41,239 bases of DNA from Acutalibacteraceae bacterium (lineage in GTDB: Bacteria > Bacillota > Clostridia > Oscillospirales > Acutalibacteraceae), in the NCBI GenBank assembly GCA_045542295.1, contig JAZQKT010000007.1:1-41239 (forward strand), given 5' to 3'. The notes beneath the pieces were generated by a model. That model was not told where the DNA came from and ran no database searches. It was given only the letters and a program-made list of their open reading frames with translations. The translations under genes and the position numbers were made by a program. This document shows positions 1,908 through 33,038 of the stretch, one piece after another; the stretch's first letter is position 1; each line of letters opens with the position of its first letter.

Positions 1908-2909
1908 TTATTTATTAAGTGCCTCGTTAACTGCAACTGCGCAAGCAACAGTCATACCAACCATTGGGTTGTTACCTGCACCGATAAGACCCATCATCTC
2001 AACGTGAGCGGGAACTGAAGAAGAACCTGCAAACTGTGCGTCAGAGTGCATACGACCCATTGTATCGGTCATACCGTAGGAAGCGGGGCCTGCAGCCATA
2101 TTATCGGGGTGGAGAGTACGACCTGTACCGCCGCCGGAAGCAACAGAGAAATATTTCTTGCCCTGTTCGATACATTCTTTCTTATAGGTACCTGCAACAG
2201 GATGCTGGAAGCGGGTGGGGTTGGTGGAGTTACCGGTAATGGAAACGTCAACACCCTCCTTGTGCATGATAGCAACGCCTTCACGAACATCGTCAGCACC
2301 GTAGCAACGAACCTTTGCGCGCTCGCCCTTTGAGTAAGCGATTTCTTCAACTACAGCAAGCTCACCTGTGAAATAGTCAAACTTTGTTTGAACATAGGTA
2401 AAGCCGTTGATTCTTGAAATGATTTTAGCAGCGTCCTTTCCAAGACCGTTAAGAACAACGCGGAGAGGTTCTTTTCTTGCCTTGTTAGCGCTCTTTGCAA
2501 GACCGATTGCACCTTCAGCAGCAGCGAAGGATTCGTGACCTGCGGGGCATGCAAAGCACTTTGTCTCCTCACGGAGAAGCATTGCACCAAGGTTACCGTG
2601 ACCAAGACCAACCTTACGGTCATCAGCAACAGAGCCGGGGATACAGAAAGACTGGAGACCTACACCGATTTTTTCGGCAGCCTCGGCAGCACTCTTAACC
2701 TCATCTTTAATTGCGATGGCGCAACCTACGATATAAGCCCAAGCCGCATTTTCAAAGCAGATAGGCTGAATATCCTTAACGATATTATAAGCATCAACGC
2801 CTGCCTTGTCGCAGATTTCTTTAGCCTCTTCAATGGAAGAAATGCCGTGCTTTTTAAGCTCTGCGTTGATTTGATTTATTCTTCTGTCATAGCTTTCAAA
2901 TAATGCCAT
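1908..2909 (-). CDS. GGGtGRT family protein (conserved, function unknown)
   Basis: Contains the eponymous SGGGTGRT motif (VASGGGTGRTLHP). The ~333-aa length is typical. The RBS (aaggagga) precedes the ATG. Confidence 0.85.
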   Translation of the reverse strand: MALFESYDRRINQINAELKKHGISSIEEAKEICDKAGVDAYNIVKDIQPICFENAAWAYIVGCAIAIKDEVKSAAEAAEKIGVGLQSFCIPGSVADDRKVGLGHGNLGAMLLREETKCFACPAGHESFAAAEGAIGLAKSANKARKEPLRVVLNGLGKDAAKIISRINGFTYVQTKFDYFTGELAVVEEIAYSKGERAKVRCYGADDVREGVAIMHKEGVDVSITGNSTNPTRFQHPVAGTYKKECIEQGKKYFSVASGGGTGRTLHPDNMAAGPASYGMTDTMGRMHSDAQFAGSSSVPAHVEMMGLIGAGNNPMVGMTVACAVAVNEALNK

Positions 2910-2927
2910 TGATCATTTCCTCCTTAA

Positions 2928-3620
2928 TTATTCTTCTCTGGGGTCGATGAGTCTTGCAGCATCATCAACACGTCCGTACTGGCCGCTGGCTTTAGCAAGT
3001 GCCTCATTAGCGTCCATACCTTTTTTAATCATATCCATCATTTTGCCGAGGTGTACGAACTTGTAACCGATAATGGTGTCGTTCTCGTCAATAGCGATTT
3101 TGGTGATATAGCCTTCAGCAAGCTCAAGATAACGAGGACCTTTAGCCTTTGTAGCAAAGGTGGTACCTGTTTGTGAACGAAGACCCTTACCCAAATCTTC
3201 AAGACCTGCACCTATCGGAAGACCGTCTTCAGAGAAAGCGGTCTGTGTACGACCGTAAACAATCTGGAGGAAGAGCTCACGCATAGCGGTGTTGATAGCA
3301 TCGCATACGAGGTCTGTATTAAGAGCTTCAAGGATTGTTTTGCCAACCAAAATTTCAGAAGCCATAGCAGCTGAATGTGTCATACCCGGGCAACCGGGTG
3401 TTTCAACCAAGGCTTCTTCAATGATACCCTCTTTAACGTTAAGGGTAAGTTTGCAGGTTCCCTGTTGAGGAGCGCACCAGCCCACACCGTGTGTAAGACC
3501 GGAAACGTCTTTAATTTCCTTAACCTGAACCCATTTGCCCTCCTCCGGAATGGGAGCGGGGCCGTGATATGTGCCTTTAGCAAGCGGGCACATATTTTCT
3601 ACTTCATGTGAATAGTTCAT
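2928..3620 (-). CDS. NifU-N/IscU-like iron-sulfur scaffold-like protein, the usual partner of GGGtGRT genes
   Basis: Three conserved Cys contexts (MCPLAKG, VGWCAPQQG, TPGCPGMTH) in an IscU-like N-terminal half. It lies 18 nt upstream of the GGGtGRT gene on the same strand. Confidence 0.7.
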   Translation of the reverse strand: MNYSHEVENMCPLAKGTYHGPAPIPEEGKWVQVKEIKDVSGLTHGVGWCAPQQGTCKLTLNVKEGIIEEALVETPGCPGMTHSAAMASEILVGKTILEALNTDLVCDAINTAMRELFLQIVYGRTQTAFSEDGLPIGAGLEDLGKGLRSQTGTTFATKAKGPRYLELAEGYITKIAIDENDTIIGYKFVHLGKMMDMIKKGMDANEALAKASGQYGRVDDAARLIDPREE

Positions 3621-6032: not shown

Positions 6033-7130
6033 TTAAATTGCGGCAAATTCACTTCCCTCACGTTTGAGGTATTTGCCGATCATTATAGCACTGCCCAGCA
6101 TACCAGCTAAAACGCCGATGCAGGCGAATACGATAAGCAACAGCCAAGCCATTTCGCCGTATTTCACAATATCGGTAGTGCCCAGGGTTTTAACGATTGT
6201 TTCGGTTGCTACACGGTAGCAGAAGTAAAGCAAGCCTTCTGAAATGAGGGCTGAAATAAGTCCGATAAGCACACCCTCAACAACAAAGGGGATACGTACA
6301 AAGGCATCAGTAGCACCTACGGCCTTCATAATGCTTATTTCAAGCTTACGGTTGTACATTGTAACACGTATTGTATTAGAAACAATTACAAGCGAAATAA
6401 TTATAAGAATTGCGATAATCCAAATACCTGCAACGGTTAAGCCTTTTTTAATGGCTGTAATTTTTTCGGCAAGACCGCTTTGAGAACGGATAACATCAAT
6501 ACCCTCAAGCTTTGAAATTTTCTCAACCGTTTGGTCGAAAAGCTCCATTTTCTCCATTTTAATTTTTGCGGCACCGGACATAGGGTTACCGTACTTTTCG
6601 TCAAGGAAGGTGAAATACTCCTCTTGACCTTCAAGCATGGATTCTTTTATGGTTTCAAGACCTTCCTCGCTTGTGATATAGGTCACTTCAACCACATTAT
6701 CAATTTCTCTTATTTTATCACAAAGCGCATCTGCTTCTTCACGGTTATGTATTACATAATCATCGGGACGGATTCCGTTTTCGTCAGCCTTGTCAGAAGC
6801 AGTACCCTCGGCTTCTTCGCCGTCCTTACTGTCGGCTTGGGAGTCGCCATCTTCACTCTCGGTGGTTGCTTTGTCAGAGGAAGCGGTATCTTCCGCTTTT
6901 TCTTCCGTGCCGTAAAGCGCCCAGTTATAGTCCTTCATATAGGCAATAACAACATTTTGATTCTCCAAATTGCCGATTGCCTTATTGATGTTTTGGGAAA
7001 TAAGAAGTGCAAGACCGATAATAACCATACAAGCAACAAGCACGCCGATAGAGGCTAATGTCATAAGACTGTTAGCCCAGGAATTTTTAACACCTTCGCC
7101 AATAAGGTATTTCACACTGCGTAGTTTCAT
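6033..7130 (-). CDS. ftsX: Cell-division ABC transporter permease FtsX (with an acidic insertion in the extracellular domain)
   Basis: TM1, an extracellular domain, then three C-terminal TM helices (FtsX-like permease). 4-nt overlap with the upstream ftsE. Confidence 0.85.
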   Translation of the reverse strand: MKLRSVKYLIGEGVKNSWANSLMTLASIGVLVACMVIIGLALLISQNINKAIGNLENQNVVIAYMKDYNWALYGTEEKAEDTASSDKATTESEDGDSQADSKDGEEAEGTASDKADENGIRPDDYVIHNREEADALCDKIREIDNVVEVTYITSEEGLETIKESMLEGQEEYFTFLDEKYGNPMSGAAKIKMEKMELFDQTVEKISKLEGIDVIRSQSGLAEKITAIKKGLTVAGIWIIAILIIISLVIVSNTIRVTMYNRKLEISIMKAVGATDAFVRIPFVVEGVLIGLISALISEGLLYFCYRVATETIVKTLGTTDIVKYGEMAWLLLIVFACIGVLAGMLGSAIMIGKYLKREGSEFAAI

Positions 7131-7867: not shown

Positions 7868-8944
7868 TTAATATTTAATCGGGTTGCTCTTTAAGTATTT
7901 GTTTACCATAAGAGCAATTTTGAATATGATTGCATGATCAAATTCACGCAGATCAAGACCTGTTATTTTCTTGATTTTTTCAAGTCTGTAAACAAGAGTA
8001 TTACGGTGTACGAAAAGCTTTCTTGAGGTTTCGGACACGTTAAGGTTATTCTCAAAGAAACGCTGAATAGTGAAAAGTGTTTCTTGATCAAGGCTTTCAA
8101 TAGAGCCTAATTTGAATACTTCTTTGAGGAAGGTTTCACAAAGTGTGGTAGGAAGCTGATAAATAAGTCTCGCAATACCCAAATTATCATAAGCTATGAT
8201 GGTTTTTTCGTTATCAAAAACCTTGCCTACCTCAAGTGCGGTTTGGGCCTCCTTAAAGGAGCGTGCCAAATCCTTAAGGTTGTCCACAGTAGTACCGATT
8301 CCGATAACTGCGTGGATATAAAATTCACCCGACATAGTGTCAGCAATGGTAGAAGCCAGCTTTTCAATGGTTTTGGGGTCAATGCCGGGCTTGGTTTCCT
8401 TAACAAGGGCAATATCCGTTTCGTTTATGCTGATAACAAAATCCTTTGTTTTATCGGGGAAAAGGTTTTGAACAATATCATAAACCGAAATATCATGATG
8501 CTCGGTAGCGCGGATAAGAATAACCGTACGCATAACATCACTGTTGAAATAAAGCTCACGTGCTTTAAGATAAATATCGCCCGGAAGAATATTATCAAGG
8601 ATGATGTTCTTGATAAAGTTGCTGCGGTCATACTTCTCATCGTAATAGAATTTGATGTTTGTAAATGTAACAGCTAATACAGAAGCGTATTTATTTGCTA
8701 AAACATCTTCTCCCTCAACAAATACTATGTAGTTTGGACCCTGCTGTGAGCCAAGACTTTTATAAGAGATGCCGCCGTTTACGATAAGCTCTGTTCCGAT
8801 AACGGGGAAGCTTTCTACGGTTTCGCCGATTTTGCCTAATTCACTACAGGCAATAACAGTGTAGTTTTCATCAATTATACCGAAGGTGCGGTCAATAGAG
8901 TCCTTCATTTGATGGATAACACCTTGGAAAAGACGGTTTGACAT
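7868..8944 (-). CDS. PucR/CdaR-family transcriptional regulator
   Basis: C-terminal PucR-type HTH (VSETSRKLFVHRNTLVYRLEKIKKITGLDL). 15 nt upstream of ftsE on the same strand. Confidence 0.7.
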   Translation of the reverse strand: MSNRLFQGVIHQMKDSIDRTFGIIDENYTVIACSELGKIGETVESFPVIGTELIVNGGISYKSLGSQQGPNYIVFVEGEDVLANKYASVLAVTFTNIKFYYDEKYDRSNFIKNIILDNILPGDIYLKARELYFNSDVMRTVILIRATEHHDISVYDIVQNLFPDKTKDFVISINETDIALVKETKPGIDPKTIEKLASTIADTMSGEFYIHAVIGIGTTVDNLKDLARSFKEAQTALEVGKVFDNEKTIIAYDNLGIARLIYQLPTTLCETFLKEVFKLGSIESLDQETLFTIQRFFENNLNVSETSRKLFVHRNTLVYRLEKIKKITGLDLREFDHAIIFKIALMVNKYLKSNPIKY

Positions 8945-10397: not shown

Positions 10398-11162
10398 ATG
10401 CTTCTTACGGTCGATATAGGTAACACGAATATAACATTAGGCGCTTATGACGGCGGCGTGCTGGCTTTTACTGCAAGACTTGCTACAGAGACCGCAAAAA
10501 CTGCCGATCAATATGCCGTAGAGCTTAAAAGCTTGCTTTCGCTTAATGACATCGAAAGCTTTGAAATAGAGGATTGTATTATTTCGTCTGTAGTTCCATT
10601 GGTTGGTAAAAGCGTAAGCTCGGCGGTGTCAAAACTTTGTCACATTGTTCCGCTTATGCTGGGACCGGGTGTTAAAACGGGACTTAATATAAAAATAGAT
10701 AATCCGGCACAGCTTGGTGCGGACCTTGTTGCAGGTGCAGTAGGAGCGCTTGATTCTTACACTATGCCCTGTGTAATAATAGATATGGGTACGGCCTCTA
10801 CCGTAAGCGTTTTGGACCGAAACGGTACATTTTTGGGCGGTGCCATTGCCGCAGGTGTAAGACTCACACTTAAAGCGCTTACTGAAAATACGGCACAGCT
10901 AACCTCAATTCCCATTGAAGCTCCAAGCTCTGTTATCGGCAGAAATACCATTGAATGTATGCAGTCGGGTCTGGTTTACGGAACTGCCGCAATGATTGAC
11001 GGTCTGCTTGAAAAAATTGAGGAGGAGCTTGGCGAAACACCCACAGTGGTAGCTACGGGCGGCCTTTCAAGAGAAATTATCACTCACTGTAAGAAGGATA
11101 TAATTTACAGCGAAAATCTGCTTTTGGATGGACTTCGTGCAATTTACGAAAAAAACAACTAA
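10398..11162 (+). CDS. coaX: Type III pantothenate kinase
   Basis: N-terminal MLLTVDIGNTNITLG actin-fold phosphate-1 motif. Length and the GGL...D pattern fit CoaX. Confidence 0.9.
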   Translation: MLLTVDIGNTNITLGAYDGGVLAFTARLATETAKTADQYAVELKSLLSLNDIESFEIEDCIISSVVPLVGKSVSSAVSKLCHIVPLMLGPGVKTGLNIKIDNPAQLGADLVAGAVGALDSYTMPCVIIDMGTASTVSVLDRNGTFLGGAIAAGVRLTLKALTENTAQLTSIPIEAPSSVIGRNTIECMQSGLVYGTAAMIDGLLEKIEEELGETPTVVATGGLSREIITHCKKDIIYSENLLLDGLRAIYEKNN

Positions 11163-11308
11163 CGGCAATAACCTGTGGCTTTTATTCTGAAAAGGTGGAA
11201 AAAACACGGAGCCGACAGTGATTTCCAACCACAAAACTGATAAGGGCTTTAGGCTTGCATATATTATTATGAGCTGTACCTTAAAGGACAGCATCGGAGG
11301 TAATTTAA

Positions 11309-11905
11309 ATGACAAATTCAGAAAAAAGAAAAGAACAGACAAAAAAATTGGTACTCGGTGCAGTAATGACTGCGTTGGTAATAATACTACAGTCGATTGC
11401 TAAATTTACTGCGTTTTTTGGACCTTTTTCAAGTGCAGTGGCATTAGTACCTATTGTAATCGGAGCAGCTATGTGCGGCACCGCAGTAGGCGCATGGCTG
11501 GGTTTTGTTTTTGGTGTTGTTGTATTAGCAACAGGTGATGCCGCATTGTTTTGGATGTTTGATATTCCCGGAACATTTATAACTGTACTTGCAAAGGGTG
11601 CGGCTTGTGGTTTATGTGCCGGTTTGGCATACAAGCTGTTGGAAAAATTCAACCGATTTGTTGCTGCTTATGCTGCCGCAATAGCCTGCCCTATCATTAA
11701 TACGGCAGTATTTTTGCTTGGTTGCTTTGTATTTTTTATGGACAGTGCAGACAAAATTGCGGCTCAATTAGGATTAAATGTTTCAGGAATGGCACTTTTC
11801 TGGACTCTTGCTATGGGGAATTTCCTTTTTGAGTTGGGAACAAGTATTGTTTTAAGCCCTGTAATAGTAAGAGTTTTAAGCATTGAAAAGAAAAGTAAAA
11901 TTTAA
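11309..11905 (+). CDS. Small multi-pass membrane protein resembling an ECF-transporter S (substrate-capture) component
   Basis: 198 aa, about six Gly/Ala-rich TM helices, basic N-terminus. A pantothenate substrate is only a guess from adjacency to coaX. Confidence 0.55.
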   Translation: MTNSEKRKEQTKKLVLGAVMTALVIILQSIAKFTAFFGPFSSAVALVPIVIGAAMCGTAVGAWLGFVFGVVVLATGDAALFWMFDIPGTFITVLAKGAACGLCAGLAYKLLEKFNRFVAAYAAAIACPIINTAVFLLGCFVFFMDSADKIAAQLGLNVSGMALFWTLAMGNFLFELGTSIVLSPVIVRVLSIEKKSKI

Positions 11906-11918
11906 CAGGGAGTAATAT

Positions 11919-12845
11919 ATGGCATTTTTGCATTTTTTGGAGAATTTAAGAAACCCCGTGTGCGATGCGTTTTTTTCTGTCGTTACGCATCTTGGTGAAG
12001 AAACCTTTTTTATTGTGTTTGGGCTTATCTTTTTTTGGTGCATTAACAAAAAAGAGGGCTATTATCTGCTGTCAATAGGCTTTATAGGTACGGTTTTAAA
12101 TCAGTTTTTAAAGCTTTTTTTCAGAGTGCCTCGCCCATGGGTTAAGGATAAAAGCTTCACCATTGTTGAGTCGGCAAGGGCAGAGGCTACAGGATATTCC
12201 TTCCCGAGCGGACATACCCAATCCTCGGTTGGAATTTTCGGAGGTATGGCACGCTGGAATAAAAATTTTGTCTTTAGAACAATTTGTATTTTGCTTTGTG
12301 TGCTGGTGCCTTTTTCAAGAATGTATCTCGGGGTACATACACCGGCAGATGTTTTGGTTTCTGTGGCTATAGGACTGGTTCTTATTTTCGGACTTTATCC
12401 GATTATCCACAAATGCTTTGAAAACATAAAGGCTATGCGGATTTTGCTTATAGTAATGGTTGCTTTGTCGGCAGGACTTTTAAGCTTTGTTTTGCTTTAT
12501 AATTTTCCTAAAGATGTTGACGCAAAGAATCTTGAAAGCGGAATCAAAAATGCCTATAAAATGCTTGGCTGTACCTTGGGTATATTTATTGCATTTGAAG
12601 TTGATAACAGGTTTATAAAATTTAAAACTGACGGCATATTTTCAGCACAAATTCTTAAATTGGCGCTTGGTGTAATTCCGATACTCGGTATAAAGGCAGG
12701 GCTTAAGGCTCCGCTTTATGCCCTTTTCGGCGGAAGCTTTTTGGCTGACGGTGTGCGCTATTTTCTGATAGTGGTTTTTGCCGGCTGTGTTTGGCCGTTG
12801 ACCTTTAAGTATTTTGCCAAAATAGGGGAAAAGCAGAGGCCATAA
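11919..12845 (+). CDS. PAP2-family (type 2 phosphatidic acid / undecaprenyl-PP-like) phosphatase with extra C-terminal TM helices
   Basis: The three PAP2 motifs: KLFFRVPRP, SFPSGHT, SRMYLGVHTPADV. Confidence 0.8.
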   Translation: MAFLHFLENLRNPVCDAFFSVVTHLGEETFFIVFGLIFFWCINKKEGYYLLSIGFIGTVLNQFLKLFFRVPRPWVKDKSFTIVESARAEATGYSFPSGHTQSSVGIFGGMARWNKNFVFRTICILLCVLVPFSRMYLGVHTPADVLVSVAIGLVLIFGLYPIIHKCFENIKAMRILLIVMVALSAGLLSFVLLYNFPKDVDAKNLESGIKNAYKMLGCTLGIFIAFEVDNRFIKFKTDGIFSAQILKLALGVIPILGIKAGLKAPLYALFGGSFLADGVRYFLIVVFAGCVWPLTFKYFAKIGEKQRP

Positions 12846-12847
12846 GT

Positions 12848-13135
12848 ATGACGGTTGATGAAATTTTAAAACCGATGATTGAAGAAGAATTAAAAAGATA
12901 TGAAGAACTCGGAAATAATATAAAACTTAAGTCTGTACGCTCTTTGCGACGGAGGTATACTGTTACGGCACTTATTGCTTTGGTTGTATTATTTCCGCTT
13001 CTTTTTATCACCATACCGGTGTACATTTATAAAATGAAAAGGCTTTCTGACAAAGCAGAGGTTATTTTGACATTGGCAAAGAAGTCCCCCGATAAGACGA
13101 TACCACAGCTTATTGCAGAGGAAATTGCCGAATAA
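12848..13135 (+). CDS. Hypothetical small membrane protein
   Basis: The ATG lies 2 nt after the PAP2 stop. One central TM segment (VTALIALVVLFPLLFITIPVYIY). No family recognised. Confidence 0.45.
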   Translation: MTVDEILKPMIEEELKRYEELGNNIKLKSVRSLRRRYTVTALIALVVLFPLLFITIPVYIYKMKRLSDKAEVILTLAKKSPDKTIPQLIAEEIAE

Positions 13136-13210
13136 AACATTAGTTGTTTGGCCAAATAGTGTTTAAGGGATCTTTAAAAATTTAGTTATAAATAATTCTT
13201 GGAGTTTGAA

Positions 13211-14959
13211 ATGAACAGATTTATTCATTTACTGTATGTTCCTACAATGAATTGCAATATGAGCTGTAAATATTGCTATTTGGGAGAAAATACGGTTGAG
13301 CTTAAAAGCGATAAGGGCTATTTGGAAACCCTTAAATTTGCTGTTGAAAAGTTCAAAGCGGAGGAGGTTATTCCGTTTAATATTTCTTTGCACGGTGGGG
13401 AGGTTACCACCCTTTCAAAGGAAAATTTCAGAGAAATTATAGAATACATAAGCAATTATTATGAGGAAAACGGTGAGCTTATCCGTGAAAACGGGTTTAA
13501 AGTTAATAAGCCACACATAAAAACAAATCTTTTTTGTCTTGACAGACACATTGAAACCCTTAAGGAATTTGATGTAAGCATAAGCGGCAGCTTGGATTTA
13601 CCCCTTTCGTTGCACGATGAATACCGTGTCACAAAGGGCGGCAAAGGAACGTTGGAGACAATACTTAAAAACATCCAAATGCTCTCTACGCTGCCTAATA
13701 GAAAAAAAGTATCGGCTACAATTTTTGAGGAGCATTTTAACAGATTAGATGAAATTGTAAGTGATATTCGTTTTTTGGCAGATAACACCTGCCTTAATAT
13801 GAATGATTTTAATTTTATGATAGGCTTTACACCTCAAACCGAGAGTGAGGTAAAGCTTACGGCTCTTTCCGAAAAAAACCAGGTTGCCTTATATGAGCGT
13901 ATGAAAAAAGAGTTTGCGGGCACCGATTTGGAGGAGGGGCTTCGTGGTGCTTGGTTTGCGGAATTCACGCCTGCATATTGCACAAATTGTGACAATTGCG
14001 GAGAAAAGTTTTTCTTGCTTGAAAAAAACGGTGATATTTATTCCTGCGTAAGAGGACAAGGTAATCCCGATTTTTATTACGGAAATATTTACCGTGATTC
14101 TGTTGAACAAATTTTTGGTACTGCCAAAGCAAAGATATTTTTAGCCCATAACCGACAGGGATTTACAGAGGAATGCGGAAATTGTGAGCATTTACATCTC
14201 TGCAAAACAGGCTGTCCATACGTTAAAACGATTTACGGCAGCAGTAAATCTTATACCTGCCGTTTGCAGAAAAAGATTTATGCGGACGGTGAATATGAGG
14301 CTATCCCCGAAAATTTTGCGTACCATTACCTTTTGAAAAATCATCCCGAAGAGGCTGAACAATACTTTAAAACAGAGTATGATGCAAACAGCCTGCCCGC
14401 ACTTATAGAGCGTGACCCTAAATTGCAGGCGGTTTATGACCCCGAAGCCTTTGTTTTGAGTGTTGACGGTGTTGAGCATAAGCTTCAGTCACAGCTTTTA
14501 AAGCGCACACGGGATTTCGTATTTATTGGCAACCAAAGCAGTATAAAGCTATATGTTAAGGAAGACACAATGGACGCTTTAAGCGATTATCCGATTAACA
14601 ATGCACTGTATATTCAACTGCTCAGCGGTGATACGGTGGTTTACGGTGATGAGCAACGTGAAAAGCAAGAGCATATTATGACACATTTGATTTATAAAAG
14701 AACGGTTGCGGCAGAAAAATCCGACAAAACGGGATATTACTGTGTTGATTTGAGCGATTTGCTTAAGATTTACGGTCCTCGGCTTTCCAAAGAAAAACCC
14801 AATAATTTGTTTTTCACTACAGCCGCACTGCGAGACTATCACTATTCAAAGCAAAAAAATAATGGTTTTTACCATATAAACGCATTGAATTTGCCTTTCC
14901 AAAACATTGAATTATTTTATTTTGATTTTAATAACCGAGAGGAGTTTTCTTATGATTAG
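13211..14959 (+). CDS. Radical SAM/SPASM-domain enzyme with a long uncharacterised C-terminal extension (rSAM-1)
   Basis: CX3CX2C at residues 15-22 (CNMSCKYC). GGE-type SAM motif (SLHGGEVT). Full SPASM Cys pattern: CGEKFFLLEKNGDIYSC (CX10GX4C), CGNCEHLHLCKTGC (CX2CX5CX3C), then YTC. The ATG at 13211 is preceded by GGAG; the ORF-track TTG at 13199 is less likely. Confidence 0.9.
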   Translation: MNRFIHLLYVPTMNCNMSCKYCYLGENTVELKSDKGYLETLKFAVEKFKAEEVIPFNISLHGGEVTTLSKENFREIIEYISNYYEENGELIRENGFKVNKPHIKTNLFCLDRHIETLKEFDVSISGSLDLPLSLHDEYRVTKGGKGTLETILKNIQMLSTLPNRKKVSATIFEEHFNRLDEIVSDIRFLADNTCLNMNDFNFMIGFTPQTESEVKLTALSEKNQVALYERMKKEFAGTDLEEGLRGAWFAEFTPAYCTNCDNCGEKFFLLEKNGDIYSCVRGQGNPDFYYGNIYRDSVEQIFGTAKAKIFLAHNRQGFTEECGNCEHLHLCKTGCPYVKTIYGSSKSYTCRLQKKIYADGEYEAIPENFAYHYLLKNHPEEAEQYFKTEYDANSLPALIERDPKLQAVYDPEAFVLSVDGVEHKLQSQLLKRTRDFVFIGNQSSIKLYVKEDTMDALSDYPINNALYIQLLSGDTVVYGDEQREKQEHIMTHLIYKRTVAAEKSDKTGYYCVDLSDLLKIYGPRLSKEKPNNLFFTTAALRDYHYSKQKNNGFYHINALNLPFQNIELFYFDFNNREEFSYD

Positions 14960-15329
14960 CGTTAAACCTACTACCTACAATGAGGCTTTGAGACTTTCAA
15001 GATGCTTTCAAATGCGGACCTATTCGCCGGAGATTACCGATGAGATTATAGAGTCAACTTATAATTTTGTGTCTGAAAATCCTGCAAATAAGGTTGGAAT
15101 GTCTAACGGAACTATTTATTTTGTAAATGCACAAGGCGAAAAAACAAAGGTTTATGCTGTATCAACAAGTGATACCTTTGACAGTCTGGTGCTTAGCGCA
15201 TCTCTGTTTAGAGTGGTAAATAAGAGTGTGGATAATGGCGGCTGCGGCTGCGGTTGTTCAAGCAATAACAACAACAATAATAACAATAACAATAATAACA
15301 ACAATAATAATAACAATAATAACGGTTAA
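14952..15329 (+). CDS. Candidate radical-SAM substrate (precursor peptide or small protein): ~100-aa N-terminal region + GGCGCGCSS + Asn20 + Gly
   Basis: The ATG at 14952 lies 7 nt after GAGGAG and overlaps the rSAM-1 stop by 8 nt. The C-terminus is ...VNKSVDNGGCGCGCSSNNNNNNNNNNNNNNNNNNNNG*. It is sandwiched between two SPASM enzymes. Confidence 0.65.
   Translation: MISVKPTTYNEALRLSRCFQMRTYSPEITDEIIESTYNFVSENPANKVGMSNGTIYFVNAQGEKTKVYAVSTSDTFDSLVLSASLFRVVNKSVDNGGCGCGCSSNNNNNNNNNNNNNNNNNNNNG
15264..15323 (+). repeat. Imperfect (AAY)20 trinucleotide tract encoding 20 consecutive Asn
   Basis: 11 AAT and 9 AAC codons interleaved irregularly (aat aac aac aac aat aat aac aat aac aat aat aac aac aat aat aat aac aat aat aac). 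Confidence 0.95.
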
Positions 15330-15333
15330 GCGT

Positions 15334-16050
15334 ATGAGAAACAGGATTTATCAAACTGTACACGTGTATAACGGCAATAGTTTAAGTGTGACTTATAAAT
15401 ATTTTATGATTGCTGTTATAATTGCAAGCATTGTACCTCTTACGCAGAAGCAGGAATTTGCTTTTTTAAAGGGTGTAGAGACAGTCTGCCTTGCTGTTTT
15501 CGGTCTTGATTTTGTTTTGCGTTGGATTACGGCTGACTATAAGTTTAAAAAGAAAAGCTGGGTTTCCTTTGTGAAATATCCCTTTAGGCTTATTTCGATT
15601 ATCGATTTGATGTCAATGTTTGCGCTCCTTGTGTCCGTAACTGATTGGTTTGATAATCTTAAGATGGCTGCCGCTTTATCGGTATTTAGAATCGTGCGTA
15701 TTTTCAGGTATTCCGAAAGTGTAAGAACTATTTTGGATATACTGAAAAAATCCAAAAAACCGCTTTTGGCGGTTGGCGGCTTGGCTCTTGGCTACATAAT
15801 GATTTCCGCTATTGTTGTATTTAATGTTGAGCCTGATTCCTTCAAAACCTTTTTTGATGCGATTTATTGGTCAACGGTTTCACTGACAACCGTAGGCTAT
15901 GGTGATATTTACCCCGTAACAGTATTGGGAAGAACGGTGGCAATGCTGTCATCCTTCTTTGGTATTGCTATTGTTGCGCTTCCTGCAGGTATTGTGACTG
16001 CAGGCTATATGAACGCAATTAAGAAAAAGAGCGAAGATGAGGAAGAATAA
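15334..16050 (+). CDS. 6-TM voltage-sensor-type potassium channel (Kv/KvAP-like), with no cytoplasmic ligand-binding domain
   Basis: Selectivity filter TTVGYGD (15886-15906). S4-like helix LSVFRIVRIFRYSESVR with Arg at every third position. Six hydrophobic segments plus a pore helix in 238 aa. The ATG at 15334 lies 4 nt after the preceding stop. No clear SD. Confidence 0.85.
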   Translation: MRNRIYQTVHVYNGNSLSVTYKYFMIAVIIASIVPLTQKQEFAFLKGVETVCLAVFGLDFVLRWITADYKFKKKSWVSFVKYPFRLISIIDLMSMFALLVSVTDWFDNLKMAAALSVFRIVRIFRYSESVRTILDILKKSKKPLLAVGGLALGYIMISAIVVFNVEPDSFKTFFDAIYWSTVSLTTVGYGDIYPVTVLGRTVAMLSSFFGIAIVALPAGIVTAGYMNAIKKKSEDEEE

Positions 16051-16053
16051 GCA

Positions 16054-17094
16054 ATGTCTTGTCAGGATAAAAACCGCCTTACGTTACAGTTTCATATTAC
16101 GGGGCGCTGTAATTTGCGCTGTAAGCACTGCTACCGCACGGAAGGTGATATAGAAACGCTTTCCTTTGATGATATAAAAGCTGTTATTGACAGTGTAAGG
16201 GAATTGCGCAAAAGCTATAATGCGGCGCACGGAATTAAAAAAAGAGCTCATATTAATTTGACAGGCGGAGAGCCTTTTTTTAGAGAGGATATTACCGATA
16301 TAATTAAATATATTGCAAAATATTCCAAAGAGCTTACTTATGCAGTTTTGACCAACGGTCCTTTTATTAATGATGAAATAATTGCTCTTTTAAAGGAAAC
16401 AAGGGTTTCGTTTGTACAGCTAAGTCTTGACGGCAAACGAAAAAGCCATGATTTTTTGCGGGCAAAGGGCGACTATAAGCGTGTTCTTAAAACCGCTCGC
16501 TTGTTAGAGTCTAACGGAATAAGAACACATATCAGCTTTACCGCAAACAGAAGCAATTATAAGGATATTCCCGCAGTGGCACGCGCCTGCAGAAGAAACG
16601 GAATAACCAAGCTTTGGTCTGATCGTTTAGTACCCATCGGCAACGCCAAAGAGCTTGAAGAGCTTAAAATAACCAAGGAGATATTCCCCGATTATGTAAA
16701 AATGCTTACCAAAGCAAAGGGGAATGTTTTTACAAGATTTTTTTATCCCAAAACACAGGTCACGCTTAATCGTGCACTTCAGTTTATCGATTCGGATGGT
16801 TCTGTCTATTCCTGCAGTGCAGGCAAAAGTCTTATTACTGTTGATGAGTTTGGCAGAATTATGCCCTGCAGAAGAATGCCGATTATTTGCGGCGATATTA
16901 AAACTGCCGATATTAGTGAGGTTTACTACGGCAGTGAGGTTTTTAGGCGCTTGAGAGACGAGCGTATACCTAAAGAATGCCTTAACTGTGCATATAATTG
17001 TTTTTGTGTAGGCGGTGCAAAATGCCAAAGCTTTGCCGAGTACGGTGACTTTTCTAAAGCAGACCCCGTCTGTGCTTTAAAAATGAAAATTTAA
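16054..17094 (+). CDS. Radical SAM/SPASM-domain enzyme (rSAM-2)
   Basis: CX3CX2C at residues 19-26 (CNLRCKHC). TGGEPF SAM motif. SPASM pattern: CSAGKSLITVDEFGRIMPC (CX12GX4C), CLNCAYNCFC...C, then DPVC. RBS GAGGAAG 8 nt upstream. Starts 3 nt after the channel stop. Confidence 0.9.
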   Translation: MSCQDKNRLTLQFHITGRCNLRCKHCYRTEGDIETLSFDDIKAVIDSVRELRKSYNAAHGIKKRAHINLTGGEPFFREDITDIIKYIAKYSKELTYAVLTNGPFINDEIIALLKETRVSFVQLSLDGKRKSHDFLRAKGDYKRVLKTARLLESNGIRTHISFTANRSNYKDIPAVARACRRNGITKLWSDRLVPIGNAKELEELKITKEIFPDYVKMLTKAKGNVFTRFFYPKTQVTLNRALQFIDSDGSVYSCSAGKSLITVDEFGRIMPCRRMPIICGDIKTADISEVYYGSEVFRRLRDERIPKECLNCAYNCFCVGGAKCQSFAEYGDFSKADPVCALKMKI

Positions 17095-17101
17095 ATAACG
17101 A

Positions 17102-17139
17102 ATCCCCCTATGGCGCGAAAATGCCGTAGGGGGATTTTT
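17102..17139 (+). terminator. Rho-independent terminator closing the rSAM/channel operon
   Basis: TCCCCCTATGGC-gcgaaaat-GCCGTAGGGGGA (12-bp stem with one G-U pair), followed by TTTTT. Confidence 0.8.
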
Positions 17140-17153
17140 GGGTATGGGTTTGG

Positions 17154-17558
17154 CTAAGGCTTGCACCTGTTGCAGGGTGTGTAACCGTCACTTAAAAGTT
17201 CTTCGCGATTATAGGTTATGTATTTGTTCGTTTCATTCATATTTTTAGCCGAGCCGCAATCGGACTTGTGAAACACCTTGCTTTTTATATTAGCATAATA
17301 TTTCACTTTTTCGGTCGGTTGAATATCAGTGCTTTGGGTTTGGGCAGTAACCTTATCTGCAGGGATAACCGAGCTGACAATCGAAGTGTCCGCACCTTTT
17401 GCGGTTTCGGTTTTGTAGCCGTTTACGGTACCGTCGGTCGGCATATTTATCGAGACCGATTTTCTTGAAGAAGTGTCGGTCTGTTTATTGCAAGCGCAAA
17501 CCGAAAGCGAAAATATCAGAATTAAAAATAAAGTTGACAGTCGTCTTAAATTTGTCAT
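17154..17558 (-). CDS. Putative lipoprotein with a C-terminal Cys-rich (H..C...C..C) motif
   Basis: Signal peptide/lipobox LILIFSLSVCAC. The C-terminus is KVFHKSDCGSAKNM...GYTPCNRCKP (putative small metal-binding module). The ATG at 17558 after AAAGGA is preferred to the TTG at 17579. Confidence 0.6.
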   Translation of the reverse strand: MTNLRRLSTLFLILIFSLSVCACNKQTDTSSRKSVSINMPTDGTVNGYKTETAKGADTSIVSSVIPADKVTAQTQSTDIQPTEKVKYYANIKSKVFHKSDCGSAKNMNETNKYITYNREELLSDGYTPCNRCKP

Positions 17559-17572
17559 AACTGTTCCTTTCT

Positions 17573-17815
17573 CTAACAAATTTCTTGATCCAAATTATCG
17601 AATTCGGGAGTAGAAAAGAATTCACCGATAGTAATATCTAATCCGTCACAAAACTTTTTGATAGTGGTAATTGAAACATCTCTGCGTGCAGAATTAAGCA
17701 TACTATAGGCGGTTGACGGGGTAACGCCCGAGCGGTTAGCCAGTTCATTTACCGTTATTTTCCTTTCTTCGCAAAGCTCTTCAAATCTGTTACACACGAC
17801 ATCCTTAACGCTCAT
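17573..17815 (-). CDS. XRE-family helix-turn-helix transcriptional regulator
   Basis: HTH ITVNELANRSGVTPSTAYSMLN. The ATG at 17815 lies 5 nt after AGGTGA; the ORF-track GTG at 17824 sits inside that RBS. Confidence 0.8.
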   Translation of the reverse strand: MSVKDVVCNRFEELCEERKITVNELANRSGVTPSTAYSMLNSARRDVSITTIKKFCDGLDITIGEFFSTPEFDNLDQEIC

Positions 17816-17855
17816 TTTCTTCACCTCTGTAAAAATTCTATGCTTTTATGCGCTG

Positions 17856-17876
17856 CTGCGTATACGCAGTTGCGTA
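17856..17876. promoter_or_regulatory. Candidate operator: perfect 14-bp palindrome plus an extra half-site upstream of the XRE gene
   Basis: CTGCGTA|TACGCAG (17856-17869), followed by TTGCGTA (17870-17876), about 40 nt upstream of the XRE start codon. Confidence 0.45.
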
Positions 17877-18131
17877 AATTTGGATAAAAATTCCAAATTG
17901 TGAATATAATTATGGGATTTTGAAAAGCTATTAAAGAACGAAGGCTTCTGAACTTAAAACGGGAATAAATGCTTTGTTTATATATTTTTTCAATAATTGT
18001 AGCATAAACACATTCAAAAGTTAAGAAAAACGCTTTTTTGAATGGGTGTAATTTCATAAAATTGGTTGAAAAAACAGCAATATTATGATATACTTATTAA
18101 GAATATATATTGTATAATTTAGGTGGTAATT

Positions 18132-19103
18132 TTGTTCGAGCAAACGGTTGATATTGAAAGAATTGAACAGATAGTAAATTTGTTCGGTAATTTTGATGAA
18201 AATATTAAGCGAATTGAAAAACGCTATGGGGTTTCAATTACCTCACACGGAAGCACCATTAAGGTTAAGGGTGATGCTACAGGGGTGGTTTCGGCTTGCA
18301 GAACGATTGAGGGACTTATTTCCATGATCAACAAGGGTGAGCAGATTACTGACCGTAATGTAGATTACGTTGCCTCACTTGTTGAGGACGGTGAGGACAG
18401 TAAAATAAGCGAGATTACTGATGCTAACTGTATCTGCATAACTGCAAAGGGTAAGCCGGTAAAGCCCAAAACTTTGGGTCAAAAGCAGTATGTTGAAGCT
18501 ATTCGTAACAACACAATAACCATTGGCGTAGGTCCTGCAGGAACAGGCAAAACCTATCTTGCAGTGGCACAGGCGGTAAGCGCTTTCAGAGCAAAGCAGG
18601 TAAACCGAATTATACTCACACGTCCTGCGGTTGAAGCGGGCGAAAAGCTTGGCTTTTTGCCGGGTGATTTACAGCAAAAGGTTGACCCGTATTTGAGACC
18701 GCTTTATGATGCTCTTTTTGATATGCTGGGAGCGGAAAATTTCCAGAAATGTCAGGAAAGGGGCGACATTGAGGTGGCTCCCTTGGCATATATGAGGGGA
18801 AGAACCCTTGATGACAGCTTTATAATTCTTGATGAAGCGCAAAATACTACAGCCGAGCAGATGAAGATGTTTTTAACCCGCCTGGGCTTTAATTCAAAGG
18901 CAGTTGTGACAGGTGATATTACACAGATAGATTTGCCTGACGGTAAAAAATCGGGATTAAAGGATGCTGTTAAAATCCTTAAAAATATTGATGATATTGC
19001 AATATCAAGGCTAACCGGTAAGGACGTTGTACGTCATAGGTTGGTTCAGGAAATAATAAAAGCTTATGAAAGAAGTGCTGAAAAAAATGAGCGTAAAGGT
19101 TAA
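18132..19103 (+). CDS. phoH: PhoH-family ATPase (PhoH/YbeZ)
   Basis: Walker A GPAGTGKTYLAV and Walker B FIILDEAQN. Followed by ybeY. The TTG at 18132 lies 5 nt after AGGTGG; the ORF-track GTG at 18123 lies within the RBS. Confidence 0.9.
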   Translation: MFEQTVDIERIEQIVNLFGNFDENIKRIEKRYGVSITSHGSTIKVKGDATGVVSACRTIEGLISMINKGEQITDRNVDYVASLVEDGEDSKISEITDANCICITAKGKPVKPKTLGQKQYVEAIRNNTITIGVGPAGTGKTYLAVAQAVSAFRAKQVNRIILTRPAVEAGEKLGFLPGDLQQKVDPYLRPLYDALFDMLGAENFQKCQERGDIEVAPLAYMRGRTLDDSFIILDEAQNTTAEQMKMFLTRLGFNSKAVVTGDITQIDLPDGKKSGLKDAVKILKNIDDIAISRLTGKDVVRHRLVQEIIKAYERSAEKNERKG

Positions 19104-28215: not shown

Positions 28216-28240
28216 TATTATATAATAAAGACTAAATGCT

Positions 28241-28480
28241 TTGATGGGAATAAGTAGCTGATATTTTAAATTAAGAGAGAAAGCGGTTGGTGAAAGCTTT
28301 TTGAAAGATATTTAGCGAAGCTATCCCTGAGTAGCTCCCGAAAGGGCAGACGGCTGTCACCGTTAAATGACTTTGAGTGCAGAAATATTATTTCTGAATT
28401 CAGGTGATACCACGGATAGACTGATTCTTGTCAGACTAAACATTCGTCCTGAAGTCTTATGACTTCAGGATTTTATTTTT
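28241..28480 (+). promoter_or_regulatory. T-box riboswitch leader, apparent Ala (GCU) specifier
   Basis: Stem I with the AGTA S-turn strand, the AGAGA box (28274-28280) and the distal loop GGTTGGTGAAAGC. Specifier loop GAA-GCT-A (GCT at 28320-28322). Stem III hairpin at 28380-28396. T-box sequence AATTCAGGTGATACCACGG (28397-28415). TTCAGG can pair with CCTGAA (antiterminator), competing with the terminator TCCTGAAGTC-ttat-GACTTCAGGA + TTTTATTTTT (28447-28480). Confidence 0.8.
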
Positions 28481-31442: not shown

Positions 31443-33038
31443 ATGAAAACCGAAAAATTACGGCTTCAGGATGGCTACAATAAGGCTGTAGACCGAGCAA
31501 CCGAGATACTCCAAAACGGCGGTATTGTTGCAATTCCCACAGAAACGGTATACGGACTTGCGGCATCCGCCTATGATGAAAATGCCATTAAAAAGGTTTT
31601 TGTTGCCAAGGGAAGACCGCAGGATAACCCTCTCATTGTGCATATTTCGGATATGGATATGCTGAACGAGGTTGCCGCGGATATTCCAAAAGAAGCACTT
31701 AAATGTGCTGAAAGATTTTGGCCGGGACCCTTTACTATGGTGCTTAAAAGAACAAACAAAACAGCCCCTTGCGTATCAGCAGGTCTTGATACAGTTGCGG
31801 TAAGAATGCCGAGCGATGAGGTGGCTTTGGACATAATAAAAAGGAGCGGTCTGCCGCTTGCCGCACCGTCGGCAAACAGGTCGGGTTCACCAAGCCCCAC
31901 AAATGCCTTTCATGTTGAAAACGATTTGGACGGTAAAATAGATGCAATAGTTTTTGGCAGTGAGTGCGGTGTGGGAGTGGAATCTACGGTTGTTTCCTTT
32001 TGCTGCAATCCGCCCCGCCTTTTGCGACCGGGCGCTGTAACCTTTGAGGAGCTTTCAGAGGTTATCCCTGATATTACGCAGGATAAGGCAGTTTTAGCAG
32101 AGCCCCAAAGAGGTGAGGCTGTGGCCTCTCCCGGAATGAAATATAAGCACTATGCCCCAAAAACCGAAAGCTATTTGGTTGAGGGGGACGCTAAAAGCTT
32201 TGCCGAGCTTGTAAACAGTGAAGAAAACAGTCTTGCGGTTTGCTTTGAAGAGGAAGCCGGCTTAATTAAAATACCCAAGCTTGTTTACGGCAAGGAAAAA
32301 AATGAGTTCACTTTAGCGCACGAGGTTTTTTCGGTTTTGCGTAAGGTTGACAGCTTTGAGGTGGGACGTGTATTTATCCACGCTCCGTCAAAGCAGGGCG
32401 TTGGTTTGGCGGTTTATAACCGTCTTATAAGGGCAACGGGCTTTAGGGTTATAAAGCTTAATACAAAGGAAATAATCGGTCTTACAGGCCCTACGGGCGC
32501 TGGCAAGAGCAGTCTTACCGAAACCGCAAAGCATTACGGATATAAGGTGATTGATTGTGATGCTTTGGCGCGCAAGGCGGTTGAAAAGGGAACAAAAGGG
32601 CTTGAGGCATTAATAAAAGTCTTTGGAGAGGATATACTCCTATTAGACGGCAGTCTTAATCGCCGAGAATTGGCAAGAAAAGCTTTTTCAACTAAAGAAA
32701 ATACCGAGCTTTTAAATTCCACTTTATTTCCGTTTATTAAAGAGCTGGTAGAGCAGGAAATGGAAAATGTTCAAAGGGTTATTTTGGATGCCCCCACCTT
32801 GTTTGAAAGCGGGATCGATGCGGTTTGCACCAAAACTCTTGCTGTTTTGGCAAACAGCGATATTAGACTGAAAAGAATAATGGCGCGTGACGGATTAACA
32901 AAGGATGCGGCTTTGCTTAGAATGAATGCAGGCAAGGATGATGATTTTTATAAGCAAAGTGCCGATGCGGTGATTTTTAATAACGGAAATGCTGATGAGT
33001 TTATAGGTGAATTCAAAGCATTTTTAACTAATTTATAA
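31443..33038 (+). CDS. Fusion protein: L-threonylcarbamoyladenylate synthase (Sua5/TsaC, YrdC + Sua5 domains) + dephospho-CoA kinase (CoaE)
   Basis: Residues 1-~335 carry the YrdC fold (AIPTETVYGLAA, ...APSANRSG) and the Sua5 C-terminal domain (SPGMKYKHYAP). From ~345, the CoaE P-loop IIGLTGPTGAGKSS runs through to the C-terminus. It is a single uninterrupted ORF. Confidence 0.85.
   Translation: MKTEKLRLQDGYNKAVDRATEILQNGGIVAIPTETVYGLAASAYDENAIKKVFVAKGRPQDNPLIVHISDMDMLNEVAADIPKEALKCAERFWPGPFTMVLKRTNKTAPCVSAGLDTVAVRMPSDEVALDIIKRSGLPLAAPSANRSGSPSPTNAFHVENDLDGKIDAIVFGSECGVGVESTVVSFCCNPPRLLRPGAVTFEELSEVIPDITQDKAVLAEPQRGEAVASPGMKYKHYAPKTESYLVEGDAKSFAELVNSEENSLAVCFEEEAGLIKIPKLVYGKEKNEFTLAHEVFSVLRKVDSFEVGRVFIHAPSKQGVGLAVYNRLIRATGFRVIKLNTKEIIGLTGPTGAGKSSLTETAKHYGYKVIDCDALARKAVEKGTKGLEALIKVFGEDILLLDGSLNRRELARKAFSTKENTELLNSTLFPFIKELVEQEMENVQRVILDAPTLFESGIDAVCTKTLAVLANSDIRLKRIMARDGLTKDAALLRMNAGKDDDFYKQSADAVIFNNGNADEFIGEFKAFLTNL

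Follow-up and report, generated by a model that had tools for sequence, protein, structure and literature searches.

The 41,239 bp stretch of DNA analysed here (the window: positions 1 to 41,239 of contig JAZQKT010000007.1, assembly GCA_045542295.1, from an Acutalibacteraceae bacterium) carries a gene for a minimal Kv-type K+ channel inside an operon that also encodes two radical S-adenosylmethionine (rSAM) enzymes with SPASM domains, rSAM1 and rSAM2, and a small protein that ends in a run of asparagines (the tail protein). Comparison with related loci indicates that the channel is accessory to a cassette built on rSAM1 and the tail protein and does not belong to its core, and that the pairing of the two is probably old and retained rather than a chance insertion. 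We consider that the channel may be a functional partner as well as a retained accessory component of this rSAM cassette, with a probability of about 45%. The cassette is apparently undescribed: a literature search brought up neither an rSAM cassette with a conserved K+ channel nor an rSAM substrate with a poly-Asn tail. An earlier interpretation of this DNA, made from its letters alone (the sequence-only reading), had likewise known of no cluster for a ribosomally synthesised and post-translationally modified peptide (RiPP) that included an ion channel, and the literature search returned nothing relevant to the contrary.

Recurrence of the channel in related rSAM cassettes

The gene order rSAM1, tail protein, channel was also found in eight other loci (L001, L006, L010, L086, L166, L168, L176 and L179), in which rSAM1 is 63–78% and the full-length channels are 64–73% identical to those of the window and the flanking genes are all different. 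Since the same order recurs with different flanking genes, it is no isolated insertion in the window. In a ninth locus, L174, the tail-protein gene has been relocated to a site 4 kb upstream (intact, 2630–3019) and the channel still follows rSAM1. Directly before the L174 channel we also noted a truncated Cys/Asn tail remnant that has no start codon (6880–6990; …SCGCASCGGSGNNNNNSSNNNIG*).

Most of the loci compared here are metagenome-assembled genomes (MAGs) or metagenome contigs, and the counts drawn from them are phylogenetically non-independent. Ten look-ups of rSAM1 proteins 64–76% identical to that of the window gave five loci with a channel after the tail protein (L166, L168, L174, L176 and L179) and five with none (L169, L171, L173, L177 and L178), while metagenome contigs scanned with an alignment of rSAM1 yielded 80 loci with a channel in L086 only (rSAM1 73% identical). 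Of the 15 cassettes with an rSAM1 that shares 63% identity or more with that of the window, 10 have the channel; of the 78 at 57–62% identity, none has it (Fisher's p ~4e-10, phylogeny ignored). Downstream sequence of 0.8 kb or more is available for 67 of these 78 distant loci. The sequence-only reading had cast the channel as a core member of the cluster, a role that does not survive its absence from 5/15 close and 78/78 distant cassettes.

Channels homologous to that of the window number in the thousands by sequence search. In a neighbour-joining tree of 86 channels taken from the fetched loci, the window channel falls into a small clade, "A", whose members are 54–73% identical and come from MAGs of Oscillospiraceae, Acutalibacteraceae and other Clostridia; its sister group consists of approximately 70 other Clostridia channels that are 45–57% identical. 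All linked channels lie in clade A, and all of the approximately 60 sister-clade channels with enough upstream sequence are unlinked. The GTDB species representatives contain seven other clade-A channels, of which two (L006 and L010) directly follow rSAM1 and the tail protein and five stand alone (L007, L008, L009, L011 and L012); two look-ups of channel proteins added one linked (L001) and one stand-alone channel (L003). Judged by the proximity of GenBank protein accession numbers only, no stand-alone channel and rSAM1 lay close enough together to be placed in one genome. In the rSAM1 tree, which like the channel tree was built by neighbour-joining and has no support values, the channel-bearing cassettes all lie in one clade (I), its basal branches included, a distribution that would fit one gain of the channel followed by several losses.

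Two further features accompany the channel within clade I. Tails with at least two cysteines occur in 8 of 10 channel-bearing cassettes (window, L001, L086, L166, L168, L174, L176 and L179, the exceptions being L006 and L010) and in 0 of 5 channel-less clade I cassettes, and rSAM2 is present in 6 of 9 channel-bearing loci (window, L166, L168, L174, L176 and L179) against 0 of 83 channel-less ones. The rSAM2 genes of L166, L168 and L174 are orthologues; those counted in L176 and L179 are radical-SAM/SPASM genes of matching size in the same place. Because multi-Cys tails and rSAM2 occur only alongside the channel, the pairing of channel and cassette appears to be old and retained.

A place for rSAM2 in the cassette core was ruled out, because no channel-less locus has it and L001, L006 and L010 also lack it. 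In L168, L176 and L179 the channel and rSAM2 are separated by one to three additional genes. Several of them belong to one protein family (L168 7890–8693, L176 6854–8610, L179 7354–8187 and 8644–9303) with a common N-terminal domain of approximately 90 residues and, in most members, C-terminal transmembrane segments. L179 also has a second tail-protein paralogue in this interval (8194–8610; 138 aa, multi-Cys, N16).

The sequence-only reading had asked for co-occurrence across genomes and had argued that close channel homologues mainly in unrelated contexts, together with homologous rSAM operons lacking the channel, would point to chance insertion. Half of this refuting outcome applies: about half of the close channels are unlinked and most rSAM1 cassettes have no channel. 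The association does recur, in at least nine related loci of gut and rumen Clostridia besides the window. These observations bear on the main competing explanation, in which an ordinary housekeeping K+ channel landed once behind the tail-protein gene in the clade I ancestor and has since been carried along by operon inertia, with no functional tie to the rSAM system. We regard this as somewhat unlikely, and several findings speak for it: about half of the closest channel homologues sit alone in unrelated and mutually different contexts, linked and stand-alone channels are indistinguishable by sequence, the cassette occurs without the channel in 83 of 93 loci, and the channel often has its own ribosome-binding site. 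A passive passenger accounts less readily for an adjacency that is kept down to 63% (rSAM1) and 54% (channel) identity and that has outlasted full turnover of the flanks, relocation of the tail-protein gene in L174 and insertion of genes between channel and rSAM2. Nor does it explain readily why the multi-Cys tail and rSAM2 go together with the channel, or why a different membrane protein fills the same slot in the sister clade of cassettes.

The same comparisons also weigh against a functional partnership between channel and cassette. Five of the 15 close cassettes and all cassettes of the sister clade (II) lack a channel. Six clade-A channels that are 66–71% identical to that of the window stand alone, share no neighbour genes and have no poly-Asn open reading frame (ORF) nearby; adding L013, whose upstream sequence was too short to classify, we found no shared neighbours among the seven either. 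No sequence feature separates linked from stand-alone channels, and since stand-alone, indistinguishable channels exist, the channel evidently can work alone. Other loci provide the channel with its own Shine-Dalgarno sequence. Finally, any interplay of channel and tail protein, whether physical or functional, is an inference.

Translation signals and operon spacing

In the window the genes from the PAP2 phosphatase-family gene to rSAM2 are separated successively by 2 nt, 75 nt, an 8-nt overlap, 4 nt and 3 nt, so that the channel starts 4 nt after the preceding ORF and ends 3 nt before rSAM2, just as the sequence-only reading described. It was also correct that the window channel has no Shine-Dalgarno sequence of its own: the 4 nt between the tail-protein stop and the channel ATG hold no GGAGG-like sequence, and the start of rSAM2, 3 nt past the channel stop, is preceded by GAGGAAG in the last codons of the channel. 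Coupled translation of tail protein and channel, proposed on this basis, applies to the window, L006 and L086, all with a 4–5 nt gap before the channel and no Shine-Dalgarno sequence, and is not a conserved arrangement, given that most loci with a 13–14 nt gap carry their own GGAGG-like site. Because coupling fails in the loci with the longer gap, stoichiometric co-production of the two proteins is not a conserved design feature, contrary to what had been supposed. The start of rSAM1 is most likely the ATG at 13211, which gives a protein of 582 aa as in its homologues, and not the TTG at 13199. A consensus scan for promoters and terminators over 11000–18200 returned motif counts equal to the level in shuffled sequence and therefore did not help with the operon boundaries.

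A minimal Kv-type channel with a charge-depleted S4

The channel ORF runs from ATG to TAA and encodes 238 aa. It matches Pfam Ion_trans (PF00520; E=5.2e-25) over residues 21–229, corresponding to profile positions 4–237 of 241, and Ion_trans_2 (E=9.4e-16) over the pore half. The nearest solved structures by sequence are KCNQ5, KCNQ2, Kv2.1 and Kv1.x (E ~1e-21, residues 28–231, from S1 to the end of S6). An AlphaFold2 model built with 37 homologues as input has a predicted local distance difference test (pLDDT) score of 81 and contains S1–S6, an S4–S5 linker helix and a pore helix (helices at residues 16–37, 43–65, 77–103, 110–126, 128–139, 141–165, 173–185 and 197–237), and a Foldseek search with it ranked Kv7, Kv1.2, Kv2.1, Kv4.2 and Shaker at the top (probability 1.0, TM-score up to 0.76). 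The six-helix Kv-type channel inside an rSAM/SPASM operon that the sequence-only reading described is thereby borne out, and the TTVGYGD filter lies exactly where it was placed (Table 1). This filter is unchanged across the 37 homologues. The charge-transfer residues of S2 (E49, F56 and D59) and S3 (D91) match their KCNQ5 counterparts in alignment, and D59 and D91 are invariant within the subfamily. After S6 (...TAGY) only 13 residues remain, with no further domain; the short end had been noted before, with a count of approximately 15. On sequence and model, the gene is predicted to encode a tetrameric-type, K+-selective six-helix channel of a Clostridia-specific subfamily.

Arginines at every third position of S4 had also been noted. 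This holds for the inner half of the segment, where three arginines are so spaced (R119, R122 and R125, plus R131), and the segment starts at 15685 and not at approximately 15676. In alignment with KCNQ5 these three residues are the equivalents of R4–R6, while R1 corresponds to Lys110, R2 to Ala113 and Q3/R3 to Ser116; set against a full S4, with at least four basic residues at every third position and the outer gating charges R1–R4 among them, the window channel agrees in part. The outer charges are lost throughout clade A, in which the S3–S4 loop is also shorter by a deletion of three residues, and the mean number of Arg plus Lys in the S3–S4/S4 stretch is 5.8 in clade A against 9.2 in the sister clade (sister minimum 8). 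Because the S4 is charge-depleted and a cytoplasmic domain is absent, intrinsic voltage sensing should be weak.

Eukaryotic Kv7/KCNQ, Kv1, Kv2 and Kv4 channels share the S1–S6 core, S4–S5 linker, pore helix, TVGYG filter and S2/S3 charge-transfer residues with the window channel, which differs from them in having only 238 aa and no T1, calmodulin-binding, RCK or CNBD domain, and in being bacterial and operon-encoded. KvAP, KvLm and MVP (Methanocaldococcus) are small six-transmembrane K+ channels without large cytoplasmic domains. The window channel is a member of a distinct Clostridia subfamily, in which S4 is charge-depleted, and its score against the MVP family model (NCBIfam NF040645, K_channel_Meth) is 44.1 bits against a cut-off of 300 (E=2e-11), below membership. 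We know of no minimal prokaryotic Kv channel reported in an rSAM operon, and the literature search brought none to light.

The tail protein and its presumed maturases

An AlphaFold2 model of the tail protein gave an alpha/beta domain over residues 1–90 with pLDDT 86–96 and a tail below 50. A Foldseek search of the PDB with this model found no fold match (best E-value 0.28), and neither the tail protein nor the small membrane protein encoded upstream of rSAM1 matched any Pfam or NCBIfam family. The tail protein gave two homologues in a Last word-indexed search made without its Asn run and 58 clusters in an exhaustive phmmer search of 1.84 billion representative proteins. Every rSAM1 locus with room for it has, right after rSAM1, a gene for a protein of 113–148 aa that terminates in a Gly/Ser-rich stretch followed by two serines (SS), 6–20 Asn and one final residue, which may be R, G, N, A, S or H. 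Among 87 distinct tail homologues the Asn run is 6–20 residues long (20 in the window), with SS in front of it in 71. It is this SS-poly-Asn tail, and not the Cys-Gly motif by which the sequence-only reading also named the small protein, that is its conserved feature. The Cys-Gly motif was ruled out as a conserved target, cysteine being absent from the tails of L006, L010 and all of clade II.

Both rSAM1 and rSAM2 match Radical_SAM, Fer4_12 and SPASM above the Pfam cut-offs. The CX3CX2C motif of rSAM1 reads CNMSCKYC, and the enzyme has a C-terminal extension of approximately 220 aa that matches no assigned domain; its relatives in the PDB, CteB and anSME, cover residues 13–357 only. Homologues of rSAM1 form more than 120 clusters at 60% identity or above. 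The best NCBIfam match of rSAM1 is DynA (102 bits against a cut-off of 450), the best NCBIfam score of rSAM2 is 141 bits against a cut-off of 395, and none of the clade II rSAM1 enzymes, tail proteins or zinc-ribbon proteins (described below) reached an NCBIfam cut-off. In L006 the rSAM1 gene has an in-frame stop at approximately 6455–6460 where its homologues have Glu (…HFDRLD*IASD…), which could be a sequencing error, a pseudogene or recoding.

We presume that rSAM1 matures the tail protein. Since the nearest solved relatives of rSAM2, CteB (E=3.6e-15) and SkfB, are thioether-forming, their similarity suggests that rSAM2 may act on the Cys motif. The ranthipeptide system of CteB, the sactipeptide system of SkfB and those of anSME, MftC and PqqE have in common with the cassette a CX3CX2C core plus SPASM, an adjacent small substrate gene and a likely target at the C-terminus. 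The cassette departs from them in the additional C-terminal part of rSAM1, in reaching no curated cut-off, in a substrate that would be a folded protein of approximately 120 aa with a poly-Asn tail, in having no conserved protease or exporter, and in its conserved neighbours, an LRR lipoprotein and a membrane protein that is either a K+ channel or a zinc-ribbon protein. The size of the tail protein and its confident 90-residue fold are not typical of a short leader/core precursor, though it is adjacent in every locus.

The cassette and its membrane-protein slot

The core of the cassette comprises a small membrane protein, a lipoprotein with leucine-rich repeats (LRRs) of the LRR_5 family, rSAM1 and a protein of approximately 120 aa ending in SS-Asn(6–20)-X. 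This core was seen at more than 90 loci, and none of the curated families fits it. The LRR_5 lipoprotein gene lies just upstream of rSAM1 in approximately 77 of the 80 scanned loci, often preceded by the small membrane protein, homologues of which were found upstream of the LRR lipoprotein/rSAM1 in L001, L006, L166, L168, L176, L179 and some clade II loci; in L010 the small membrane domain is fused to the LRR protein. No protease or exporter is conserved across related cassettes. Genes for a Ser/Thr kinase, PP2C and FHA proteins flank the cassette in L001 (1–2661 and 7609–9783) and in L171 (1–3413), which are otherwise unrelated loci.

In clade II the position after the tail-protein gene is occupied in 60 of 78 loci, following a gap of 9–13 nt, by a gene for a protein of approximately 337 aa with two zinc ribbons flanking two transmembrane helices and no specific Pfam or NCBIfam family. 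The zinc-ribbon protein and the channel never occur together in one cassette, and the slot is empty in about one quarter of loci. As the zinc-ribbon protein holds the same position in clade II as the channel does in clade I, this position seems to behave as a membrane-protein slot.

These features raise the alternative of a signalling or defence-like module, in which the LRR lipoprotein and small membrane protein would sense the outside, the rSAM-matured protein would relay or store the signal, and the slot protein would be an interchangeable output altering membrane potential or ion content. The near-constant LRR_5 lipoprotein and its fusion to the small membrane domain in L010, the alternative membrane proteins in one slot, and the kinase, PP2C and FHA genes beside L001 and L171 all agree with such a module. 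We nevertheless think it improbable: the window itself has no LRR lipoprotein, the slot is unfilled in a substantial minority of cassettes, there is no sign of mobility or of a defence island (the window cassette is flanked by housekeeping genes), and PADLOC-DB gave no defence family match beyond a generic viperin-like similarity of rSAM2. That similarity was a generic radical-SAM match to pVip (83 bits), and the NCBIfam viperin model scored 70.6 bits on rSAM2 against a cut-off of 180; the channel, tail protein, small membrane protein and LRR protein matched nothing in PADLOC-DB.

A possible route from tail maturation to the channel

The channel was probably recruited once, in one clade, to the place just downstream of the tail-protein gene, along with the multi-Cys tail motif and a second, CteB/SkfB-like rSAM/SPASM enzyme. 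If it is indeed a functional partner of the cassette, rSAM1 may recognise the folded domain and modify the Ser/Asn tail, and rSAM2 may modify the Cys motif. The matured protein would stay in the cell, because the tail protein lacks a signal peptide and the cassette lacks a conserved protease or exporter. The matured tail could then act on a membrane partner and, where this is the channel, serve as a regulator or pore-occluding particle, supplying the gating input that the weakened voltage sensor and the missing ligand domain cannot. Gating input from a partner seems the most economical reading for a channel of this kind. The specific gating-particle mechanism is a speculative step to which we assign low odds. 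The same low odds attach to the composite proposal that the tail, matured by two rSAM enzymes, is a cytoplasmic gating particle or ligand and that the cassette represents a new class of radical-SAM-modified proteins with interchangeable membrane partners under an extracellular LRR lipoprotein. The N-type "ball and chain" and Kv-beta, KCNE and KChIP subunits offer an analogy only, namely a separate small protein with a flexible terminus that is co-produced with a Kv-type pore; no homology to them was found, and in the tail protein the flexible segment is C-terminal and would be enzyme-modified.

Besides a channel ligand or gating particle, the sequence-only reading had considered that the channel might be a conduit or sensor or a self-protection variant. 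In the self-protection or export reading, the matured peptide would be a secreted K+-channel toxin and the channel a resistant decoy or immunity variant, or else the channel would be the route by which the product leaves. RiPP clusters often carry immunity genes as a matter of general knowledge, and no result here adds to that support. Self-immunity or export is unlikely, and we give it hardly any weight, in view of a tail protein with no signal peptide and a confidently folded 90-residue domain, the lack of a conserved protease or exporter in the cassette, and the absence of a channel from most cassettes. The filter and pore are canonical and invariant and so do not have the look of a resistance variant, and from established channel structure a K+ pore is too narrow to conduct a peptide.

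For Kv-type channels of bacteria, hardly any physiological role has been assigned and hardly any protein partner is known, and a channel subfamily found repeatedly behind an enzyme-matured protein is a testable candidate for a bacterial channel regulator system; if the partnership is real, the tail protein would be an enzymatically manufactured channel regulator. Because the cassette occurs widely among Clostridia of the gut and rumen and fits no curated family, it also points to an unexplored radical-SAM modification, possibly on the Ser/Asn tail. Should the channel be a mere passenger, the comparison would still have delimited a new rSAM system, as well as a Kv subfamily in which S4 is depleted of charge.

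Other features of the window

The coordinates of the operon and of the features discussed above are given in Table 1. The window cassette has no LRR_5 gene; the PAP2 gene, which ends 2 nt before the gene for the small membrane protein, stands in place of the LRR lipoprotein of other loci, and no PAP2 homologues were found in related loci. By Pfam there is no peptidase or transporter in the window operon.

Table 1. Features of the channel-bearing operon in the window, with examples of the clade II slot protein.
Feature	Position	Strand	Description
PAP2 phosphatase-family membrane protein	11919–12845	+	Pfam PAP2, E=6.7e-23; window-specific neighbour
Small membrane protein	12848–13135	+	95 aa; upstream cassette member, homologues 91–103 aa
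rSAM1	13211–14959	+	582-aa radical-SAM/SPASM enzyme; Pfam Radical_SAM, Fer4_12, SPASM
Tail protein	14952–15329	+	125 aa; folded residues 1–90, disordered tail GGCGCGC-SS-N20-G
Cys-Gly motif GGCGCGC of tail protein	15237–15257	+	Residues 96–102; read from sequence
Asn20-Gly coding tract ending tail protein	15264–15326	+	Mixed AAT/AAC codons; read from sequence
Minimal Kv-type K+ channel	15334–16050	+	238 aa, S1–S6, no cytoplasmic domain; Pfam, PDB sequence matches, AlphaFold2, Foldseek
S4 segment FRIVRIFRYSESVR	15685–15726	+	Only inner basic positions (R4–R6 equivalents) retained
K+ selectivity filter TTVGYGD	15886–15906	+	Residues 185–191; read from sequence
rSAM2	16054–17094	+	346-aa radical-SAM/SPASM enzyme; Pfam Radical_SAM (E=1.2e-21), Fer4_12, SPASM
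Convergent lipoprotein after rSAM2	17154–17579	-	Beyond end of operon
Zinc-ribbon membrane protein, clade II examples	L098 8119–9129; L100 8110–9138; L124 4351–5388		57 other loci likewise

The C-terminal approximately 60 residues of the convergent lipoprotein have an H/C...CxxC pattern with a weak Ada_Zn_binding match, and homologues of this C-terminus directly adjoin sister-clade Kv channels in L055, L059, L073 and L081; this Ada_Zn_binding-like lipoprotein may be a second recurrent neighbour of the channel family. Further along the window, a T-box leader (Rfam RF00230, 123 bits; 28232–28454, +) precedes a 160-aa ORF and a gene for a class I/II aminotransferase. A single 531-aa ORF (31443–33038, +) has Sua5/YrdC threonylcarbamoyl-AMP synthase domains and, at its C-terminus, a dephospho-CoA kinase (CoaE) domain, and looks like an unusual fusion.

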